Source: Methanobacteriota archaeon
Lineage (GTDB): Archaea; Thermoplasmatota; Thermoplasmata; SG8-5; JAGLSY01
Direction of reading: 5' to 3'
DNA: 64,000 nucleotides
Assembly (NCBI GenBank): GCA_020696385.1
Contig: JAEHCQ010000001.1
Coordinates: 320,001 to 384,000, forward strand
A model generated the notes under the pieces. The model had not been told where the DNA came from. It saw nothing but the letters and a program-made list of their open reading frames with translations, and searched no databases. The position numbers and the translations under genes are program-made. The stretch's first letter is position 1. The number at the start of each line of letters is the position of its first letter. Below, piece after piece: positions 1 through 9,659 of the stretch.

Positions 1-2283
1 GACTTCCATTTCCCTTTCCAATATCTTAAGGTCCTGTGGGTCAAGTGTGCCAGGTGTCACAGACATCAGGAATATGGAATCACTTTCTGAAACATCATCT
101 ATCAATCTTCTAAGGAATCTAAGGACAGCATCAAAACTGCTATTGCTTATGAGATATTCCAGGCCATCTATCAAAAGTATGCCTTTCTTGCCAGTATTCA
201 GAATATCCTCGATCTTGTAAATGATCCTCTCAAGTGCTGGCTGTATCGTGTCCTCCGTGCTTTCCCTGTCAGTCAACCATAATAATTCCGCTTCGCCAAA
301 ATCATAATCTCCCTTGAGGCGTCGGGGATTGGTCCTGCTTATACACATACCACCATATCCAAGGTCAAGTGTTTCGACAAATATCTCGAAACATTTTTCG
401 GGACGATCCTCCTCCACCAAATAGCTTCTGGATATCTTCAAACTCTCTGATTTGGCTGTATTATCAAAGATCTCCGCCTCCTTTTCTTTGGGCTCTTCTT
501 TGACAGGTTCTATATCTTCATCCTTCAGAACAGATTCCGCAAGGGATACGGTCGGGTTTGTGTTCATCAATTCACAATATGCTATGACCTTGTTCAGGGC
601 TCCTTCGAGGAGTCTCACATTGCTGGTGTATATCTTGGCGATGAATTTCAATACATCATCCCCGATAACAAAACCAGCAACCTCTGACTTTTGCCTCAAT
701 ATACTAACCCTGGTTTCAAGATCCGGAGCCTGCATATCAGTCACCAGGCCAGATTCAAAACGCGATACAAGTCTATCCTTTAGACCAGATATTTCTTTCA
801 ATGGGCAGTCACTGGTCATGACTATCTGCTTATCCTCCTTGTGAAGGGCATTGAAGGTATGGAACAGCTCGTCCTGAACGGCTTCCTGATCTGCAATGAA
901 TTGTATATCGTCTATCAAAAGAATGTCGAGCTTTCGATATCTGCTTCTGAAGGCCTTCATCTTATTGGATTTGGTAGCCTCGATGAATTCCTGCATGAAC
1001 TTCTCAGTGGTTATATAAAGGACCTTTCTGTCCTCATTATTACTGGCCACGTAATTCCCTATGGCATTGATCATGTGGGTCTTACCCAGGCCAACTCCAC
1101 TGCATATCAATAATGGATTGTAAACTGAAGAATCTGCTTTGGCAACAGCCAGTGAAGCTGCTTGTGAGAATCTGCTATTATCCCCGACAACGAAATTCTC
1201 AAAAGTGAATGTGGATATGAGCCCAGTATCCTTTGTCTTGAGGATATCGTCGAGCTTTCCCTTGTCTGTTTTCGCATTCTTGACAGCTCCGCATATTGGA
1301 CATTCATCAAGGCCACCCATTTCTCCACCACAGATACTGCATATATCCTCAGGTTCTCCGGCAGATGTTCTCTTCTTATTCATGACAATGGGGTCTGGCT
1401 CAGGGGTGGATTTGAATACTGGTTCTATGCTGGGAGCAGGTTTCTCAATTACTGGTTTGTCAGCAACCACAGGTTCTGCTTCCATAACCTGTTCTTTCTC
1501 TGGTTCTATGATCTCAGGTTCCACTGGATCATCCAATAGGTGTATCTTATCACTGAGATCCTCCATAGCGGCCTCTATGGCGGTTATCTTCATTGGATTC
1601 ATGAAAAGAGCCTGGAGCTTTTTCACCTCGGTCCCATGACCGATGGTGTCCATACTTTCCAGATCCCCCTTGAAAAATTCTATCTTCTTTATGTTCTCGG
1701 TGAATTCATCAAATATATGTTTCGCATCTACCATCGAGCCTTCAAGAGCATCCTGAAGGTTGTTCACGATATAACCTTCAGATTTCCATCCCTCCATTCT
1801 ATTTTGAAGGGCTTTCAATTCCTTGCTCGAACCTGTTTTCTTTGGTTCTTCATTATTGGTATCTCCCCACGAGATCCCCACTTTAGCTCGTGGTTTTTTC
1901 TTTGCAGATGGTTTCAGAACAGTGATGGAAGATTCTGGATGGGTAGAGATAAACTCATCCACCTCCAATCTACCTCTAACCTCTATCTCGCATTTATCAT
2001 CATAAGAATCCACCCAGGAAAGCTTGAGGGCCTTCTCGCCCTGCTTTGTTATTTGCAGGTCGGATCCGTCTCTTCTACCATAAACTGCTGCTGCTGGCAC
2101 TCCATTCTTGATTATCAGATATCCCTCAGATATCTGCCCATCTCTCTTCAGCATGCTCTTGACATAGCCCGTGAACTCATATTTCTTGAGCTTGATGAGA
2201 CTTTTCTTTAGAGTATCCTCTCCGCCATGGATGGTTCGGATCAACTTGCCCTCGGGCAGGAAATCATTAGACGTTAACAGCAC
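1..2283 (-). CDS. Multidomain protein: DUF2226-like + Zn ribbon + DnaA-type AAA+ ATPase (no domain IV) + DUF835; runs off the left edge
   Basis: Not in the ORF track; manually translated, open from 2292 to base 1. Motifs: FTFENFVVGDNSRF, YNPLLICSGVGLGKTH (Walker A), LLIDDIQF (Walker B), QDELFHTFNAL, RLVSRFESGL, PDLETRVSIL, SNVRLLEGAL; CSIC-x9-CPIC; C-terminal CISRTNP/LLWLT/ILLIDGLEYLI/KILEREME typical of DUF835. Start uncertain (TTG 2292, GTG 2283, ACG 2274). Confidence 0.9.
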   Translation of the reverse strand, partial: MLLTSNDFLPEGKLIRTIHGGEDTLKKSLIKLKKYEFTGYVKSMLKRDGQISEGYLIIKNGVPAAAVYGRRDGSDLQITKQGEKALKLSWVDSYDDKCEIEVRGRLEVDEFISTHPESSITVLKPSAKKKPRAKVGISWGDTNNEEPKKTGSSKELKALQNRMEGWKSEGYIVNNLQDALEGSMVDAKHIFDEFTENIKKIEFFKGDLESMDTIGHGTEVKKLQALFMNPMKITAIEAAMEDLSDKIHLLDDPVEPEIIEPEKEQVMEAEPVVADKPVIEKPAPSIEPVFKSTPEPDPIVMNKKRTSAGEPEDICSICGGEMGGLDECPICGAVKNAKTDKGKLDDILKTKDTGLISTFTFENFVVGDNSRFSQAASLAVAKADSSVYNPLLICSGVGLGKTHMINAIGNYVASNNEDRKVLYITTEKFMQEFIEATKSNKMKAFRSRYRKLDILLIDDIQFIADQEAVQDELFHTFNALHKEDKQIVMTSDCPLKEISGLKDRLVSRFESGLVTDMQAPDLETRVSILRQKSEVAGFVIGDDVLKFIAKIYTSNVRLLEGALNKVIAYCELMNTNPTVSLAESVLKDEDIEPVKEEPKEKEAEIFDNTAKSESLKISRSYLVEEDRPEKCFEIFVETLDLGYGGMCISRTNPRRLKGDYDFGEAELLWLTDRESTEDTIQPALERIIYKIEDILNTGKKGILLIDGLEYLISNSSFDAVLRFLRRLIDDVSESDSIFLMSVTPGTLDPQDLKILEREMEV

Positions 2284-2383
2284 CTCGCTCAATGTACATC
2301 ATGCTTCTTATTTAAATAATTATAATATGGATGAGCATCCATTAGACCATAAATTACTGATATCATAGCTTATTCCATCAATA

Positions 2384-3184
2384 TCAGCCATACATATGCT
2401 GTGATACATCAGACACTGCTGGAGGTCGGGTAAGAGCTGGCTGTGCTTGCTTGACAGCCTTCTTGAGCTGACTTTCGAGAAGCTCTGCTTCATCGATAAG
2501 TGGCTGAGGATCTAGTTTGATCTTTGGCAGGAAATGGTCAAGAGACACTATCAGTCGAGCCGCAGCTCTGGCATCCGGGTAATCTGAATGAGCGTCGGCC
2601 AATAGACATATGACATCTCCACCCAGTCTTTCTGCCTCATACAGCAATACACCGGAAATACCGGTTATCACACCATTTTCAAGTGGTGTGAGACTTTTCA
2701 GGCCTTTTAATATCTCACGACTGGCATTCGAACTTGCAACACCGTAGGTATTACCATCATTATTGTCAGGGACACCATCCACCGTACTGGCCTTCGTGTT
2801 CACTATGCCTTCCACAGATATGATCTGCTTGATGCCCACTTTATCGGACCATTCGATTATATTATCAACAAGGGGCTTCATTAATTCGGTAGGGGGTGGA
2901 AATTCAGATGTCAGAACGACCACCTTGCTGCAGATATTACCATCCTCACACATAGGCTTTCCAGCATATATCCTAAGAGGAGGCATTGGAATAGAGTCTG
3001 TTACTATCGCAGTTGGATAGAAATGTCTGGATGAGACAGATCCCACATAATCAAGCTTGAGGATCTTTATCAGATAATTGGAAACAATAGTGCTGACCAT
3101 TCCAACACTCGGGAAACCTTCGATCAGTACCGCACCTTTCATATCGAATTCTTTTCTATTTATGATCTTTATATCATCTTCCAA
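2384..3184 (-). CDS. PAC2-family proteasome assembly chaperone
   Basis: EGFPSVGMVSTI, PPLRIY, GISGVLL, YPDARAAA motifs; C-terminal HbYX-type tail (MYG); TTG start at 3184 after GGTGA. Confidence 0.88.
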   Translation of the reverse strand: MEDDIKIINRKEFDMKGAVLIEGFPSVGMVSTIVSNYLIKILKLDYVGSVSSRHFYPTAIVTDSIPMPPLRIYAGKPMCEDGNICSKVVVLTSEFPPPTELMKPLVDNIIEWSDKVGIKQIISVEGIVNTKASTVDGVPDNNDGNTYGVASSNASREILKGLKSLTPLENGVITGISGVLLYEAERLGGDVICLLADAHSDYPDARAAARLIVSLDHFLPKIKLDPQPLIDEAELLESQLKKAVKQAQPALTRPPAVSDVSQHMYG

Positions 3185-3331
3185 AATATCACCACGCCAG
3201 GATATTGATTTCAGATACTTAATTCTGATGACATGAAGATTATCATCATAATATGGGTCAAGCACATGAAATTAGGGATAGAAAAGATACCAATCTTTAT
3301 CTACATGATGTCAATAAGACCATGATACAGG

Positions 3332-4222
3332 ATGGTGAGTGAATTGTCCGATGTTCAGAGCCAATTACTAAGAGGAAGTTTCAAGCTAACAAGAGTGGGC
3401 GTCACAGACGTCAAGAAACCTGTGATAATAAAGAGAGATAACAAGGAAGTGATGCTAGCCGCCAGCTTCGATATTTTTGTCGATCTCCCGGCCGAATTGA
3501 AGGGGTCTCATCTTTCCAGGAATCTAGAGGTTCTCTCCCGGGTATTGGATGAGAGCGTGAGGGATCATGCTGACAGCCTGGAAATACTGGCTGCAAAGAT
3601 ATGTTCCGAGCTTCTGGTCAGGCATGAATATGCAACCTGTTCCGAGGTGAACATCACAGCGGATTATTTCATGGAAAGAGAAGTGAATGGAGGTGCCAGT
3701 AGCCTGGAATCTTATCTTCTCAAGGCAACTGCCATAAGCTTCCGAAATGGTGAATCCAACAAATCCATAGGTGTGGAGGTCATCGGTATGACAGCCTGCC
3801 CATGTGCGATGGAAGAAGTGAGAGACAGATACCTTTCTCGCTACCCGGAGAGTGAGGAATTGCTTAGAGCAATTCCAATCATCACCCATAATCAGAGAAA
3901 TATCAGTAGTCTGGAGATAGATGTTCCGGTGAACTTCGATGTTGAAGCCGAGGATCTCATAAACATCCTCGAAGATTCATTAAGTAGCCCAACCAGAGAG
4001 ATATTGAAAAGAAAGCATGAGGCTGATATTGTCGAAAAATCTCATGCCAATCCAAAATTCGTGGAAGATGTCGTTAGAGACATACTCAGCGCGGTACTGG
4101 ATAAATATCAGGATATGCCAGACAATGTGAAGATAATGGCAAAGAGTGAAAGTCAGGAATCCATACACAAGCACAATGCATTTGCCGAAAGGGTCACAAC
4201 ATTGGGAGAGCTCAAAGCATGA
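3332..4222 (+). CDS. mptA: GTP cyclohydrolase MptA (FolE2 family)
   Basis: KGSHLSR, GMTACPCA, THNQR, NPKFVEDVVR, ESIHKHNA motifs. Confidence 0.93.
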   Translation: MVSELSDVQSQLLRGSFKLTRVGVTDVKKPVIIKRDNKEVMLAASFDIFVDLPAELKGSHLSRNLEVLSRVLDESVRDHADSLEILAAKICSELLVRHEYATCSEVNITADYFMEREVNGGASSLESYLLKATAISFRNGESNKSIGVEVIGMTACPCAMEEVRDRYLSRYPESEELLRAIPIITHNQRNISSLEIDVPVNFDVEAEDLINILEDSLSSPTREILKRKHEADIVEKSHANPKFVEDVVRDILSAVLDKYQDMPDNVKIMAKSESQESIHKHNAFAERVTTLGELKA

Positions 4223-4398: not shown

Positions 4399-4893
4399 CT
4401 AATCTGAGAGAAGTTCCATTGCTTCTTTCTCATCCATGTTCAGAGCTTTTAACATGTATGTCAAAGATTTCTTCTTTATCATACGTGTCGTGGTCTCATC
4501 AAGGAACTTTTCCATGGCGATCGGAGCCCTTGTGAAATAGCCCATTGCGAACTCGGAGAAATACAGGCCAGCATTTTCCTCATCTATCTCAGTGGCCTTG
4601 TTATAATATTCCTCGGCCTCATTGAAGCGTCCCATATCATTGCAGAAAGATGCGAGAGAAGTGACATAATAAACCTCTTCAGGGTCCAGCTCAGCAGCTT
4701 TCAGGTAGAGTTCCTGTATCTCCTCGGGCTTCACCTTGTGTACTCCCAGAGAAGCTTCAGCCTTACCGAAGTAAGCCCTTGCATTCTTCGGATCTTTTTT
4801 AATGATGTCATTGAACTTCTTTCTGGCTTTTTCATGTTCAAATTCCGCTAGTAGTATGTCCGCTTTGACCAGTTCGTCTTCAATGGTTGCCAT
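4399..4893 (-). CDS. Tetratricopeptide repeat protein
   Basis: TPR-like helices (ARAYFGKAEA, GRFNEAEEYYNKATEID); GGAG SD. Confidence 0.85.
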   Translation of the reverse strand: MATIEDELVKADILLAEFEHEKARKKFNDIIKKDPKNARAYFGKAEASLGVHKVKPEEIQELYLKAAELDPEEVYYVTSLASFCNDMGRFNEAEEYYNKATEIDEENAGLYFSEFAMGYFTRAPIAMEKFLDETTTRMIKKKSLTYMLKALNMDEKEAMELLSD

Positions 4894-5129: not shown

Positions 5130-8100
5130 TCAATATTCGGGAGGTATGACCTCTTCAGGTGAGACCGGAGGAGCTCCCTCTGGAGACATAGGAGGTGCAT
5201 CCTCAGGTGGCATTGAAGTACCATCTGCAGGCTGAGCGACGAATGCCGGCGGTGGTGGAGGAGGTGGTTGTTGGTACTGTTGCTGTGGTGGCTGATTGTT
5301 CTTTTTCACTATTATGACGATGATCAATAAGATGACCATTGCCAGAATTATCAACAATATCCACCACCAGTTCGAAGCACCATTATCGACATCGAGTTCG
5401 ATGGGATCCAGATCATTGGTCTGGCCATCTGAGACCGTGACAGGAATGGTGGTATCGTAATCTCCCTTAGATACCAGAAGATCATGGGTACCAACAGGAA
5501 CATCTAGCAGCTCGAACTCACCATTTTCATCGGTGATCTGTGAATATGTATCGCCATCCACTACGACCTGTACTAGGGCTCCCTCGATAGGGGTGCCATC
5601 AGCATCAATGATCTGGCCTCCGATATCGCCAGTTGGTGGAATGGGTTCATCTTCGGTGGTAAAAGCCCCGATCATATCATTATCCATCTTGTTACCTATC
5701 AGATCTCTGACCGCGCCCTCGAACATCACATTGTATTCCGTACCATAGGACAGCGAGTGATCTGGTGTGAAAGCGACCCTTGAGCCATCGGCATCCCAGA
5801 TGAAGGTTCCTGTGATCGTGTCATCCTCGACAAATACTTCACCATTTTTCCTGTATATCCTCATGCCAGCTTCCACACTGTCACGATCCATTTCTTCATT
5901 GAAAGTGAATGCGATATCGGTATCGACCGAAATATCATCTCCGGATGGAGCTATGGTGACCATGGGGGACTTGGTATCCCAGATCAGAGTGAATTCATCA
6001 TAAGCACTGTTACCCGCAAGGTCAAAGACAGTTAGCCTAATGACAAAGGTACCATCTATGTCGGATCTTATCGTGGTCTTATTATCATCATTAGATCCGA
6101 AATCGATATGATTGGCAAAGCCACTTTCTGTTGTCCAGGAATAGTAATCGATCCCACTGCCATGTTCTATGACCGTACTGAATTGTGTGAACTGCTTGTT
6201 CTCGGTCCTATTGGGTCCTATGTCGATAAATGGGATAACAGTATCCCAAACAAGTATGAAGGAATCAGTGGCATTGTTCCCTTCGAAATCATAGGCCAAG
6301 AAACTTATCTCGTATGTACCATCGATATCAGCTTCCATCTGGGTATACATATTATATGGATCCCAAAAGCTGATGGAACCAGGACCAGATACCTGTGCCC
6401 ATTCATATCCATCAACACCAGATTCTGTATCAATGGCTACACCATATTGTGTAAAAGCCGAGCTCTCCCATCTGTCAGGACCAGCTTCAACATCAGGTGG
6501 TGTCGAGTCCGGGACAAAGGTTGTGAAACTCCATGTATGAGTTGGAGGTGAATTTCCATAGATATTTGTGCCCCCACTTACCCGCATGCCGATCGTCTCG
6601 GCATATGTCCAATCACTGTGGGTCCAGGTAGCAGTATCAGACACTACATTGGTGGTGGACCAGCCCGAGAATGACCAGCCACCTGGATCAGTACCTGAGG
6701 TCTGTACCAATGCAGGATTCGAACCTGTGTTCATAGTCCCATCATATACGACACTGACACTCTGGTCAATAGCAATTCCAGCGGAGCCGCTAGCTGGGGT
6801 AGTGGATATCACCTCTGGAATTGGATGTCCAACATAGACATCGTCAATATGCCAGTAATCCATACCAGCACCGCTACCACCAGTCTGTGAGAATCTGAGT
6901 TGGAAAGATGAGTGTATGGCATCAGCAGAAAGGAGATAAGTACGATCATACGTCGCCCCCTCGGATGCTCCACCGAAGAATGTCTCCAGCCATACCCATG
7001 TTCCAATATCATTCATATAATACAGTTCAAGGTCTTCGCCGCCATCGGGGTTCTCACTGAAAATACCACTGCCTTCCTGTATCCAACATTCTACTTCCAC
7101 TATTGAAAGGCCGGATGTGTCAATGAACCAGGAATCCACATTTACCAATCCACCTGACGTGTACATTGACCATGATCCAGAGTTCGAGATCTGGGTTCCA
7201 ACTCCTGAGAATGTGGGATTATCCGATGTCCAGTTCAAACCAGTGCTACCACCGAATACACCGAACTCAAAGTCATCAAGCCATGGAGCTGTGAAAAATA
7301 CGTCTGTGGTTATCTGTGCCGTATCCAATCTCATGGAATCATTCTGAGAGATAATAGTTATGAGAGAAGTGTTTGAATCACCTGGAATCGCACCCCCTGG
7401 AATAGTAACACGGACAATTACCTGGACTGATGCATTGACCGGTACCATGACATTGGATATGTCCATGGTATCTGCCGCGTTCCTGAGAGTCACTGGCCAT
7501 GTACTTCCAGATACTGAAAGATTGTATGTGTCATTTAATAATCCAGTATTTGTGATCGTTATAGTGTAATCCAATACGCCACCTGCCGAAGATGCGTCAG
7601 TTTGGTAACTGGGGGATACATCCAATCGGTATGGTGGTGTGACATTACCATTGAGAAGCCAGTATATGATATCATCCAGAAGCACAGCCCTATCACCTGT
7701 GCTATCATCAACAGCAGTCAGATCAAAGGCCGTGTATACCACCCTGTAAGTTCCTGTATCCGCCCTGGTCGCGATATTTGCAGTGGATGTGGTAGTGAAT
7801 ATTGTATGACCATCATTTATAGGATCATTATCTGTCCTGTATGCCCATATACCTGGATTGACAGTACCTTGATCCCCAAGGTATGTGTCATTATCCGTGA
7901 TGATGTCTCCTGGAACACCATTTATAGTGAAAGGGGAAGCTGTGTTTCCCTCAAAAGCAAGGTAATTCGAATGCAGATAGGTATTGTACCAGGGTGTCCA
8001 CGTAGCTCCATTAACAGAATCATAACCTGCCAGACAACTGGATAAATACAATTTACCACCAGCATCCAGATATGTTCCGATATTGGCTCTATCGGTCGGA

Positions 8101-9659
8101 CTGAAAGTTCCGTCATTTGGGGATACCGCACTATCATCATAGGAATTACCTGTTGCCCAGATAATTATCTCATAGACGAGTAAGTCAGCCGCAGATGGAA
8201 CTCCATCGACCGCGTATTCCCACACATCGTAGGAATAACCTGTCGAATCCAATGCAGCCATTATCTCGACCTCCGTATTTAGGCTAGTGATCGCACCACC
8301 ATCATCATCCACATACAGTATCATTCCAGGAACAATCGTCATGATCATTTCCATATCAGATATAGTACTGTTACCCTGAGAAGTGGCTGTTATATTGGCA
8401 TAGTCTATATCTCCTTTAGCTGCCGCGCCCGGTATGTTCACGCGAGCGATGAATTGTGAATTATTACCAGCAGATATGGAAATAGTGGTTATATTTATTG
8501 TATCGCCGGCATCGCGGAATATCACTGGCCATGAATTATTCTGCGCAGATAGATCATAGGTATCATTGCTCGACCCATTGTTCCATATTATGAATCCATA
8601 ATCTGCAGAGGCACCAGGACTTTCCCGTTGAATGGTTGATGTAACCGGAGTCATATCGAAATCATAAGGAGGCAATGCCTGTGTCTGTATCTGGACCATA
8701 TCAGAATCAGTAGTATTACCCTGTGATGTGGCTGTTATGAACGCTGCATCCACTTGCCAGGACGTAGCTCCACCTGGGATGCTCACACGGGCAATGAAGC
8801 TGCCAGTGCTTCCATTTGTTATAAAAATATTAGATATATTAGTGGTGTCGCCAATGTCCCTGAATATTACAGGCCATGCGTTTCCACCTACTGAAAGATT
8901 ATAAGTGTCATTGCTTGTGCCGATATTATCGATGCTGAGAATATGATCCACATCTGATCCTGGACCACCGGCAGCACTTTGGAGATCGGGGTATAGATCC
9001 AAGGAAAAGGCAGGAGGTGGCCCTACATATACATCGTCTATATGCCAGTAATCAAAACTTCCCCCACTTCCACCTGTTTGGTAGAATCTTATTTGGAAAT
9101 TTGAATGGCAGGCATCTAATGGCAATATATGATCCACATTATAGACAGTACCAGGAGCGTCCACATTGCCAAAGAAAGTATCCAGCAAGACCCATGAAGA
9201 TACATTGTTAAGATAATATATTTCAATATTCTCGGTAAGTGTATCTGGAGCTTCGCTTCCCCCAAAGGCCCCTCCTTTACGAATGTAGCAGCTGAATGAG
9301 ATGTTGAGATAGGCACTCGTATCTATACTGGAAGAATTCAATGTAACTGTTCCACCCTGTGTGTACATGGAGTAAATGCCTGACTGGGATGTTGATGTAT
9401 CCACACCATAAGTTCCTGTGCCAAGTACACCGGTCCAGTTGAACCCCGTACTTCCACCGAAGTTACCGGTTTCAAAATCATCCAGCCAAGGAATAGGAAA
9501 AGCCATAGGGGATCCGGCATTACCATTGTCTTGAGAAATCGTATTGCCTGAATATCCCGCCATGATAGGTCCCGCGCTCATGAGGAGCAATAACCCTACC
9601 AGTAGAACCGAAATCATTCCCCTAACTTGCCCACTTTTCATATTATCGAATGAACTCAT
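5130..9659 (-). CDS. Large membrane-anchored surface protein (two Reelin/MAM-like beta-sandwich repeats, NEW3-like Ig repeats, SbsA/Big_5-like and carboxypeptidase-regulatory-like domains)
   Basis: 1509 aa; signal peptide; duplicated PWLDDFExGxFGGSTG...DYWHIDDVYVG unit; three IxNxGxxNDTYxLS repeats; C-terminal TM then Gln/Pro-rich tail. Confidence 0.85.
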   Translation of the reverse strand: MSSFDNMKSGQVRGMISVLLVGLLLLMSAGPIMAGYSGNTISQDNGNAGSPMAFPIPWLDDFETGNFGGSTGFNWTGVLGTGTYGVDTSTSQSGIYSMYTQGGTVTLNSSSIDTSAYLNISFSCYIRKGGAFGGSEAPDTLTENIEIYYLNNVSSWVLLDTFFGNVDAPGTVYNVDHILPLDACHSNFQIRFYQTGGSGGSFDYWHIDDVYVGPPPAFSLDLYPDLQSAAGGPGSDVDHILSIDNIGTSNDTYNLSVGGNAWPVIFRDIGDTTNISNIFITNGSTGSFIARVSIPGGATSWQVDAAFITATSQGNTTDSDMVQIQTQALPPYDFDMTPVTSTIQRESPGASADYGFIIWNNGSSNDTYDLSAQNNSWPVIFRDAGDTINITTISISAGNNSQFIARVNIPGAAAKGDIDYANITATSQGNSTISDMEMIMTIVPGMILYVDDDGGAITSLNTEVEIMAALDSTGYSYDVWEYAVDGVPSAADLLVYEIIIWATGNSYDDSAVSPNDGTFSPTDRANIGTYLDAGGKLYLSSCLAGYDSVNGATWTPWYNTYLHSNYLAFEGNTASPFTINGVPGDIITDNDTYLGDQGTVNPGIWAYRTDNDPINDGHTIFTTTSTANIATRADTGTYRVVYTAFDLTAVDDSTGDRAVLLDDIIYWLLNGNVTPPYRLDVSPSYQTDASSAGGVLDYTITITNTGLLNDTYNLSVSGSTWPVTLRNAADTMDISNVMVPVNASVQVIVRVTIPGGAIPGDSNTSLITIISQNDSMRLDTAQITTDVFFTAPWLDDFEFGVFGGSTGLNWTSDNPTFSGVGTQISNSGSWSMYTSGGLVNVDSWFIDTSGLSIVEVECWIQEGSGIFSENPDGGEDLELYYMNDIGTWVWLETFFGGASEGATYDRTYLLSADAIHSSFQLRFSQTGGSGAGMDYWHIDDVYVGHPIPEVISTTPASGSAGIAIDQSVSVVYDGTMNTGSNPALVQTSGTDPGGWSFSGWSTTNVVSDTATWTHSDWTYAETIGMRVSGGTNIYGNSPPTHTWSFTTFVPDSTPPDVEAGPDRWESSAFTQYGVAIDTESGVDGYEWAQVSGPGSISFWDPYNMYTQMEADIDGTYEISFLAYDFEGNNATDSFILVWDTVIPFIDIGPNRTENKQFTQFSTVIEHGSGIDYYSWTTESGFANHIDFGSNDDNKTTIRSDIDGTFVIRLTVFDLAGNSAYDEFTLIWDTKSPMVTIAPSGDDISVDTDIAFTFNEEMDRDSVEAGMRIYRKNGEVFVEDDTITGTFIWDADGSRVAFTPDHSLSYGTEYNVMFEGAVRDLIGNKMDNDMIGAFTTEDEPIPPTGDIGGQIIDADGTPIEGALVQVVVDGDTYSQITDENGEFELLDVPVGTHDLLVSKGDYDTTIPVTVSDGQTNDLDPIELDVDNGASNWWWILLIILAMVILLIIVIIVKKNNQPPQQQYQQPPPPPPPAFVAQPADGTSMPPEDAPPMSPEGAPPVSPEEVIPPEY

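Follow-up and report, generated by a model that had tools for sequence, protein, structure and literature searches.

This report concerns a 64 000-nucleotide stretch of archaeal DNA (hereafter the window), positions 320 001–384 000 of contig JAEHCQ010000001.1 (G000:C11:320001-384000) in the 2.28-Mb, 94.5% complete genome of a Methanobacteriota archaeon (assembly GCA_020696385.1), and a gene at its left end whose product carries a bacterial-type DnaA AAA+ domain between archaeal domains. DnaA is the textbook bacterial replication initiator and, to our knowledge, is usually regarded as a protein that archaea lack. The gene occupies positions 1–2292 of the minus strand, where open reading frame (ORF) listing and translation give a 764-residue frame with a TTG start codon (2292–2290) and an open 3′ end; the resulting N-terminus, 'MSEV...', agrees with the gene starts of the homologues P0004 and P0005. 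On the source contig the frame runs on for four residues (ISFM) and a stop to the left of position 1, giving a protein of 768 residues of which residues 1–764 lie inside the window. Its parts are, in order, an N-terminal domain (N-domain), a helical segment, a C4 zinc ribbon, DnaA domain III, a charged linker and DUF835, the arrangement proposed in a first-pass annotation of the sequence. Part boundaries were set from a 39-member family alignment, which also supplies the residue statistics below, and from an AlphaFold2 model of residues 1–262 (mean predicted local distance difference test score, pLDDT, 80).

The AAA+ module (residues 348–590; window 523–1251, minus strand) is a DnaA domain III of bacterial type, comprising the AAA+ core, the initiator-specific helices and the lid. 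In the Pfam scan Bac_DnaA (PF00308) matches residues 360–519 (window 736–1215) with an E-value (E) of 2.8e-61 and 206.8 bits, all remaining Pfam matches apart from DUF835 being generic AAA overlaps. In the NCBIfam scan the DnaA model TIGR00362 scores 331.7 bits, 12 bits under its cut-off of 343.9; the match spans residues 348–630 and profile positions 94–371 of 437, that is, domain III and lid only. Models for related ATPases do less well, with Hda (TIGR03420) at 82.3 bits where its cut-off is 194.8 and IstB (NF038214) at 53.8 bits where 200 are required, while the IstB/DnaC helicase-loader family PF01695 appears as a secondary overlap of 37.4 bits beneath the 206.8 bits of Bac_DnaA. The gene is not among the 13 matches of the genome to the Orc1/Cdc6 model TIGR02928 at E up to 1e-3, and its product has no Cdc6_C match. 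Among solved structures the best matches are the DnaA chains 8bv3_A and 8btg_A (267 bits, gap-free over residues 16–247 of the query), the 8BTG protein being presumably B. subtilis DnaA; 2z4r follows at 218 bits, 1l8q, 3r8f and 2hcb at 139 bits, and the Hda chain 5x06_E at 35.6 bits. Walker A and Walker B are separated by the initiator-specific helical insert (ISM), which shows no gaps relative to 8btg_A or bacterial DnaAs, and the module is 50–57% identical to bacterial DnaAs over ~30% of the query. The minus-strand DnaA frame recognised at the first pass was thus borne out by profiles and by the sequences of solved structures alike.

The motifs then quoted are all where they were said to be. 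Walker A lies at G399–H406 (GVGLGKTH), Walker B at L458–F465 (LLIDDIQF), sensor I at T493–D495 with D495 as its aspartate, the box VII and arginine-finger segment at R507–F512 (RLVSRF; box VII R507, finger R511) and sensor II at N558–G564 (NVRLLEG) with R560; the WKSEGY segment and the C4 ribbon, described below, were likewise correctly placed. Functional residues were mapped through the E. coli dnaA gene and the ungapped alignment to the solved chains. The accessible part of PMC5742627 assigns E. coli DnaA Arg285 to the arginine finger, Arg281 to box VII, Arg227 and Leu290 to the AID motifs, Arg334 to sensor 2, and Val211 and Arg245 to the H/B motifs. Every one of the 39 family members keeps the Walker A lysine and threonine, the Walker B aspartates, the sensor I aspartate, the box VII arginine, the arginine finger and the AID-2 leucine; the sensor II arginine is kept in 38 and the AID-1 arginine in 36, in support of the claim that the oligomerisation arginines are retained. 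The invariance of these ATPase and protomer-contact residues argues that the machinery for ATP-dependent head-to-tail assembly is strictly constrained.

Conservation is more uneven at the positions that contact single-stranded DNA (ssDNA). The accessible part of PMC10721633 lists Asn187, Ile190, Ile193, Arg202, the essential Lys222, Glu223 and Glu228 as ssDNA or base-capture residues in the BUS complex 8BTG. The equivalents in the window protein are Q434 (Asn in 14 of 39 members), I437 (Ile in 16, polar or charged in many), T440 (Ile, Leu or Met in 5; Thr, Arg or Lys in 31), R449 (Arg in 36), Q469 (Lys or Arg in 14), E470 (Glu in 20) and E475 (Glu in 37). The earlier statement that the ssDNA contacts are altered is therefore right for Lys222, Ile193 and Asn187, here Gln, Thr and Gln, and wrong for Ile190, Arg202, Glu223 and Glu228, which are kept. 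Its companion observation, that GKEQTQ becomes DQEAVQ, was accurate as a description, but genuine Bacillota DnaAs already have Gln or Gly at the position of E. coli Arg245. Judging by the family alignment, there is no strict constraint on the lysine that contacts phosphate in DnaA or on its hydrophobic wedge.

Neither of the other conserved DnaA domains accompanies the module. Domain IV (Bac_DnaA_C, PF08299) has no match in the 768-residue protein by Pfam or NCBIfam scan and none genome-wide at E up to 0.01, a search in which bacterial controls were positive in 10 of 10 cases. Because the frame closes four residues beyond the edge, no domain IV is concealed outside the window, a possibility that the first-pass annotation had raised. 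Domain I (DnaA_N, PF11638) has no match at E up to 1 in the whole protein or at E up to 10 in its N-terminal 355 residues. As initially described, the slot that domain IV occupies in DnaA holds instead a charged Lys/Glu-rich linker (residues 591–622; window 427–522, minus strand), within a region where the TIGR00362 alignment gives out, and then DUF835. The gene is the sole strong Bac_DnaA match in its genome. Two Orc1/Cdc6 genes, both on another contig, score 423.8 and 256.6 bits, above the curated TIGR02928 cut-off, in agreement with the expectation that this archaeon initiates with Orc1/Cdc6.

DUF835 closes the protein (residues 623–764 within the window, to 768 beyond; window 1–426, minus strand). 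PF05763 matches residues 629–762 over profile positions 3–136 of 136 with E 2.4e-26 and 92.5 bits, against a gathering score of 33.1. Direct reading of residues 623–768 finds no GK[ST]; 'GGMCISRTNP' stands at the P-loop position and a Walker-B-like 'ILLIDG' is kept. Detectable sequence kinship with KaiC-like ATPases amounts to one weak link (FlaH NF004723, E 7e-4), and the best match among sequences of solved structures has E 0.27. The description of DUF835 as an inactivated KaiC-like signalling domain agrees with the accessible part of PMC5847659, where a table lists it as an inactivated KaiC (iKaiC) signalling output and where REC–DUF835 response regulators of Methanomicrobia and Thermoplasmata have DUF835 as their recorded output domain. 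The window genome encodes five DUF835 proteins whose partner regions, read by eye, vary from an N-terminal region of ~190 residues to tetratricopeptide repeats (TPR) and a zinc ribbon with TPR, as well as 27 KaiC-family (PF06745) matches in 2.28 Mb, a large expansion. KaiC-like ATPases reportedly act as signalling hubs, according to a 2017 mBio paper.

At the other end, the N-domain (residues ~10–125; window 1918–2265, minus strand) is a conserved alpha/beta domain modelled at pLDDT ~88–90, with the predicted order b-a-b-b-b-b-a-b-a and invariant G42, Y43, G57 and G64. The label 'DUF2226-like' given to the N-terminus at the first pass did not hold up: PF09987 has no match in the N-terminal 355 residues at E up to 10, none in the genome and none in 301 phylum genomes at 1e-5 (M. 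jannaschii control positive), which leaves language-model scores of 0.87–0.88 to two clusters with 61–68% PF09987 members, by calibration a lead only. PATAN was also considered and set aside, PF14332 being absent from the genome; the score of 0.83–0.84 to a cluster with 12% PatA_N members is again, by calibration, a lead only. By scan the N-domain lies outside every Pfam family. Foldseek against the PDB returned nothing at E up to 1e-3 for the model of residues 1–262, and VIA-align reached a best Z of 6.6 for that model, to generic helical bundles, and for the N-domain a Z of 6.0 to acetolactate decarboxylase (4bt2_A) and 5.2 to NucS (2vld_B), values too weak to name a fold. Among shorter proteins the only stand-alone relative of residues 1–262 is one 102-residue fragment. 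The genome encodes a second N-domain protein (G000:C49:6076-8520, equivalent to L086:1076-3520, minus strand; 815 residues, profile E 1.9e-15), which has no Pfam match at E up to 1e-3.

Four elements on the minus strand join the N-domain to the DnaA module. A basic linker (residues 126–152; window 1837–1917) is predicted to be disordered, with pLDDT below 50. The helical bundle that follows (residues 156–254; window 1531–1827; pLDDT ~92) carries WKSEGY at W169–Y174, with W169 and G173 at least 90% conserved across the family. An acidic, Pro-rich low-complexity linker (residues 255–315; window 1348–1530) varies in length and aligns poorly between members, and leads into the C4 zinc ribbon (residues 316–336 with C318, C321, C331 and C334; window 1285–1347), whose profile matches are weak and rubredoxin-like (E 0.39–0.97). 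The ribbon is far from universal: its first Cys pair occurs in 17 of 39 members, and the internal ribbon is missing in 22.

The architecture is not peculiar to this assembly but defines a family of the phylum Thermoplasmatota. PF00308 and PF05763 occur together in 70 of the first 72 database matches (P0002–P0073), the other two being partials of 568 and 627 residues, and in 9 separate genomes that were fetched; recurrence across so many sources excludes the chimeric assembly that had been named as a way for the first reading to fail. Two MAG contigs carry full-length relatives, one 85% identical (956 kb, titled Methanobacteriota archaeon) and the other 67% identical (titled Thermoplasmata archaeon). 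As the first-pass annotation had suspected, such fusions already carry names: a few members, from metagenome-assembled genomes (MAGs) of Thermoplasmata archaea, are called 'DnaA/Hda family protein', 'DUF835 domain-containing protein' or 'chromosomal replication initiator protein DnaA'. Some of these existing labels are wrong in naming an initiator, a caution for annotation pipelines applied to archaeal MAGs, and what is new is the reuse of an AAA+ module of the DnaA family from which domains I and IV are missing. A literature search, with paper supplements outside its scope, found nothing on the architecture, the N-domain, the cassette relation described below or the phylum-wide spread, and no paper naming DUF835 together with DnaA.

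Orthologues without the DnaA module reveal how the protein is built. An N-domain-only profile has matches in 104 of the 401 phylum genomes sampled, and 8 of 12 further N-domain proteins that were scanned have DUF835 straight after the N-domain and no DnaA module. In one sister family of the same class, where all 6 sampled genomes have the N-domain, a short N-domain–DUF835 form of 335–356 residues was found at all three loci examined (G305, G121 and G184), in the order gyrA–gyrB, ThiC, N-domain–DUF835, a convergent zinc-ribbon protein and an AP_endonuc_2-type TIM barrel. The equivalent slot in four other genomes (G230, G314, G389 and G383) is filled by the DnaA-bearing form, with 660–743 residues. 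When the two are aligned, N-domain and DUF835 match, and residues ~130–590 of the window protein (helical bundle, linker, zinc ribbon and DnaA module) stand out as one block found in the long forms only. Short and long forms are thus positional orthologues set apart by a single insertion or deletion, sharing N-domain, DUF835, genomic slot and convergent neighbour; since the short ones fill the equivalent slot without the DnaA module, the module belongs to a roughly 460-residue segment that was inserted or lost. The window protein is the clearest case of an intact DnaA module within an archaeal N-domain/iKaiC protein, and the pairs with and without it offer a natural comparison for an initiator-type AAA+ filament outside replication, as well as a way to approach what DUF835 and the new N-domain do.

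The gene lies in housekeeping synteny that is conserved across several families, and the convergent zinc-ribbon protein is its conserved neighbour. This neighbour adjoins the gene at 7 of 9 long-form and 3 of 3 short-form loci (10 of 12), tail-to-tail, with a gap of ~0 to 75 bp between the frames; beside the window gene it is encoded immediately beyond the left edge of the window, on the plus strand (L001:18-1418). It consists of an N-terminal double zinc ribbon, a disordered linker and a helical-repeat domain of ~260 residues (model pLDDT >90 over residues 203–461). The model has no match in the PDB at E up to 1e-3, and the protein has no PADLOC match. Complex prediction for the G305 short form and its neighbour gave a score of 0.00 in two runs made without controls, and weighs neither way. 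In the subclade of the window protein the disordered linker of the partner contains two copies of a short 'KELSFAERMKAMKEG' motif, predicted to form short helices and missing from more distant partners; this motif may be a docking peptide.

Two loci depart from this pattern. At G096 (L050, G096:C19), where the gene encodes a 611-residue form, the usual neighbour is replaced downstream by a pair of Ras/Roc-type small GTPase genes (products of 413 and 284 residues) and by a 148-residue ORF with a weak zinc-ribbon match. At G003 an overlapping Rad51/KaiC-like gene lies downstream, and PriL, Hjc and the Rad51-like gene flank the gene. OGG_N, AP_endonuc_2-type and AlkZ-like genes are close by in several genomes, and no Cdc6 gene was found in the 9 neighbourhoods. 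In 7 genomes (L047, L048, L049, L051, L093, L094 and L095) one gene (ThiC) separates gyrB–gyrA from the gene for N-domain and DUF835, whether or not the latter includes the DnaA module. In bacteria dnaA commonly belongs to a dnaA–dnaN–recF–gyrB region, and a DnaA module beside gyrase recalls that arrangement, making co-transfer a possibility. Inteins interrupt gyrA and/or gyrB at L048 (G314), L051 (G383) and L095 (G184), as seen from Intein_splicing, LAGLIDADG_3 and Hint_2 matches.

Beyond this family, the ATPase and oligomerisation core of DnaA is widespread in the phylum without its origin-reading and helicase-docking domains. A strict threshold (E up to 1e-20) leaves PF00308 matches in at least 45 of the 401 genomes, including 18 of 262 high-quality ones, with all 10 bacterial control genomes positive and none of 4 archaeal controls. 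Seven of the positive genomes, the window's own (G000) included, belong to its class; in one family 23 of 24 genomes are positive, and a single genome may have as many as 8 matches (8 in G162, 6 in G089). Neither domain IV nor domain I was detected at E up to 1e-4 in any of 26 ORFs or ORF pieces around the phylum matches. Of these, 4 end in DUF835, 6 have double zinc ribbons (DZR) after the module, 1 continues into a type II/IV secretion ATPase domain and 7 are forms of ~390–490 residues without recognised flanks. In a representative database search (n = 150), domain IV accompanied the module in 77 proteins and DUF835 in 16, with neither in 52. The module has thus been shuffled into many settings: with DUF835, with double zinc ribbons, with a type II/IV secretion ATPase, in tandem, on its own and, as described below, split off into a neighbouring gene.

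Several of these forms deserve individual mention. An 821-residue frame (L020, G021:C1) has DnaA domain III (7e-70) followed by a type II/IV secretion ATPase (T2SSE, 7.8e-35), and so, from its domain matches, appears to be two different oligomeric ATPases in one protein. Tandem DnaA modules occur in P0123–P0137, P0139, P0148, P0195 and P0255, most of 570–700 residues and two of ~1900, with no taxon label and with no domain IV found by phmmer. Seven proteins of 1200–1500 residues (L014, L016, L017, L021, L022, L025 and L087) combine an N-domain, ~800 unannotated residues, an intact DnaA domain III and double zinc ribbons; in the complete 1423-residue ORF of L087 (G150:C1:3382024-3386292), the case confirmed over its whole length, the N-domain comes first, the DnaA module spans residues 952–1113 and the zinc ribbons lie at 1324–1375.

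In two other families the components are encoded separately. At all four loci examined the gene after an N-domain–DUF835–X protein encodes a DnaA-like protein of 677–838 residues whose module is divergent (PF00308 E 2.9e-16 to 3.2e-6) and degenerate, having lost both the arginine finger and the sensor I Asp in all four cases and changed the Walker A Lys to Arg in 2 of 4, with a shortened ISM. That the N-domain/DUF835–DnaA linkage occurs as a fusion, as an adjacency and as a zinc-ribbon fusion argues more strongly than anything else here for a joint function of the parts. The gene string at these split loci (L096–L099 with L088–L091; G267, G017, G037 and G225) ends with a CxxCxxCC protein (3 of 4) and citrate synthase, and both families are numerous in the phylum sample. 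The C-terminal extension of the N-domain–DUF835–X proteins (~650–760 residues) was considered as kin of the helical domain of the zinc-ribbon partner and rejected, with hhalign probabilities of 1.5% and 0.6%.

We placed the AAA+ modules in three trees, one by FastTree (200 rows) and a quick and a careful one by IQ-TREE (75 rows each). The main DUF835-fused group, 13 sequences and the window protein, is recovered as a clade with moderate support (91/90, careful tree); another pair of DUF835 fusions is placed elsewhere, and zinc-ribbon-fused modules are found in several deep branches. In none of the trees is an archaeal module nested within a particular bacterial subgroup. Forcing 26 domain-IV DnaAs into a clade costs 48 log-likelihood units (p-AU 0.024), for a group that was chosen post hoc and against 'others' that include unlabelled, possibly bacterial, sequences. 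The Hda outgroup sits on a branch of ~10 changes per site, and the root and the bacterial backbone are unreliable; with the post-hoc grouping, this precludes a conclusion on donor or root. What the trees do indicate is that the archaeal DnaA modules are old and diverse; their high identity notwithstanding, they do not stem from a recent transfer out of a group such as Bacillota.

Set beside known systems, the window protein shares with bacterial DnaA a domain III in which all the ATP-binding, hydrolysis and inter-protomer residues are kept. It differs in lacking domain I, the helicase and regulator docking domain, and domain IV, the helix-turn-helix that reads DnaA boxes, in its added N-domain, helical bundle, zinc ribbon and DUF835, in the changed Lys222 and Ile193 equivalents and in its archaeal host with Orc1/Cdc6. 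Like Hda/HdaA it is a DnaA-related AAA+ protein without domain IV, for which a regulatory rather than initiating role is conceivable, but Hda is a single-domain protein of ~230 residues, whereas this is a multi-domain protein of 768 residues with sequence affinity to DnaA proper. Its DUF835 is a terminal module, as in other DUF835 proteins, where it is joined to varied sensor or adaptor domains; unlike REC–DUF835 regulators it has no REC, and the module partnered with DUF835 is a DnaA AAA+ ATPase, a combination absent from the DUF835 listing in the accessible part of PMC5847659.

We postulate that the protein is an ATP-gated, self-oligomerising signalling or scaffolding switch rather than a replication initiator, a reading that we hold with about even confidence; architecture, residues, insert relation and neighbour are observed, whereas oligomerisation, partners and signalling role are what we infer. 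The archaeal core has two parts, the N-terminal alpha/beta domain and the C-terminal DUF835, and in this lineage a cassette of roughly 460 residues with the DnaA AAA+ domain III is set between them; the core would work with the neighbouring double-zinc-ribbon/helical-repeat protein. The module would bind and hydrolyse ATP; in its ATP state, copies of it would join head-to-tail by way of the arginine finger and build an open helical oligomer of the kind that DnaA forms. N-domains and DUF835 domains, brought together in this way, would make up a multivalent platform that could engage the zinc-ribbon protein and perhaps some of the many KaiC-like ATPases of the genome, and that ATP hydrolysis would reset. 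The first-pass suggestion of an ATP-switched polymer or scaffold is of this kind and agrees with everything found, and the existence of positional orthologues without the DnaA module strengthens it.

Several observations weigh against this proposal, and some of them favour a different one, in which the DnaA module polymerises on ssDNA (or RNA), zinc ribbons provide the anchor in place of domain IV, and the filament would serve chromosome maintenance, repair, replication or transcription control with DUF835 and N-domain as regulatory inputs. We consider this nucleic-acid-bound filament the main rival, possible though less likely than the switch. Four of the seven ssDNA/base-capture positions are kept in the window protein and those of Arg202 and Glu228 nearly throughout the family, so nucleic-acid binding may persist; the zinc ribbons of protein and partner might just as well bind DNA or RNA, and they recur by fusion (the 6 DZR-bearing ORFs and L087) as well as by neighbourhood. 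The location of the gene 1–2 kb from gyrB–gyrA, near repair-type genes, in 7 genomes would fit a DNA-related role, as would the company of PriL, Hjc and a Rad51-like gene in G003. In addition, the KaiC connection of the switch stems from the iKaiC annotation of DUF835 and from one locus in nine with an adjacent Rad51/KaiC-like gene, and the difference between long and short forms may reflect either insertion or loss. The filament model in turn has to accommodate a Gln in place of the essential Lys222 and the loose constraint on this position and on those of Ile193 and Ile190, as well as an internal zinc ribbon that more than half of the aligned members lack. Short orthologues retain the zinc-ribbon partner without the DnaA module, implying that the role of the partner is independent of a DnaA filament, and the nearby genes form a conserved block of related genomes, which may be mere synteny.

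The remaining alternatives are considerably less probable. DnaA and Orc1/Cdc6 belong to one clade of AAA+ initiator ATPases, and the protein might accordingly act in trans as Hda does, docking its arginine finger on Orc1/Cdc6 to stimulate or block ATP hydrolysis and so couple licensing to signals. The invariant finger and box VII arginines, the Hda-like want of a DNA-box reader and the two Orc1/Cdc6 genes in the genome would suit such a regulator, but Hda models and chains score far below those of DnaA, the orc1/cdc6 genes are on a different contig and outside the neighbourhoods searched, and we think it improbable. The clade membership itself is partly covered in the accessible part of PMC5742627; the window protein differs from Orc1/Cdc6 in having no winged-helix Cdc6_C. 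A role in defence or stress, with the protein as a STAND- or AAA-type anti-virus sensor-switch and DUF835 and the zinc-ribbon protein as effector or adaptor, seems slightly less credible again. Defence systems typically employ multi-domain NTPases whose terminal domains vary, a type that the protein fits in general terms, and some genomes contain many DnaA-module paralogues with shuffled domains. The PADLOC-DB 2.0 matches (mad8, E 9.2e-5, 20.1 bits; DrmD, E 1.6e-3) are weak and generic, at ~14–20 bits in the P-loop region, the Pfam scan of the protein finds no nuclease, protease or other effector domain, and a single-copy gene in housekeeping synteny is unlike a mobile defence island. Least plausible of all, and in our view very improbable, is a true alternative bacterial-type initiator, as some database names would have it; the high identity of the AAA+ module and a TIGR00362 score just under the cut-off speak for it, but it would be an initiator without domains I and IV in a cell with two Orc1/Cdc6 genes, whose sister-family orthologues do without the whole module and whose counterparts in the split families have lost the arginine finger.

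Elements of the switch and of the filament might also be combined. In Thermoplasmatota, possibly including abundant marine lineages, the DnaA filament could serve as a general signalling polymer, one that in this family would still touch single-stranded nucleic acid through a conserved Arg202/Glu228-type pocket while DUF835 plugs into the KaiC-like network, a speculation to which we give little credence. Were it true, a KaiC-type archaeal network for signalling or timing would be coupled directly, under the control of ATP, to the chromosome, be it to replication, to repair or to the control of supercoiling near gyrase, by a component derived from a bacterial initiator, although the cell itself initiates with Orc1/Cdc6.

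The next genes to the right in the window are ordinary. They encode a PAC2-family protein (2384–3265, minus strand), GCHY-1, a folE2-type GTP cyclohydrolase (3332–4222, plus strand), and a small TPR protein (4399–4893, minus strand), and the PAC2-family and GCHY-1 genes stay beside the DnaA-bearing gene at loci L043 and L044. Further along, positions 5130–9659 of the minus strand encode a predicted surface protein of 1509 residues with Reelin-subrepeat-B-like, PKD-like, Big_5 and CarboxypepD_reg domains and, as read by eye, a hydrophobic stretch towards the C-terminus and a tail rich in Pro and Gln.

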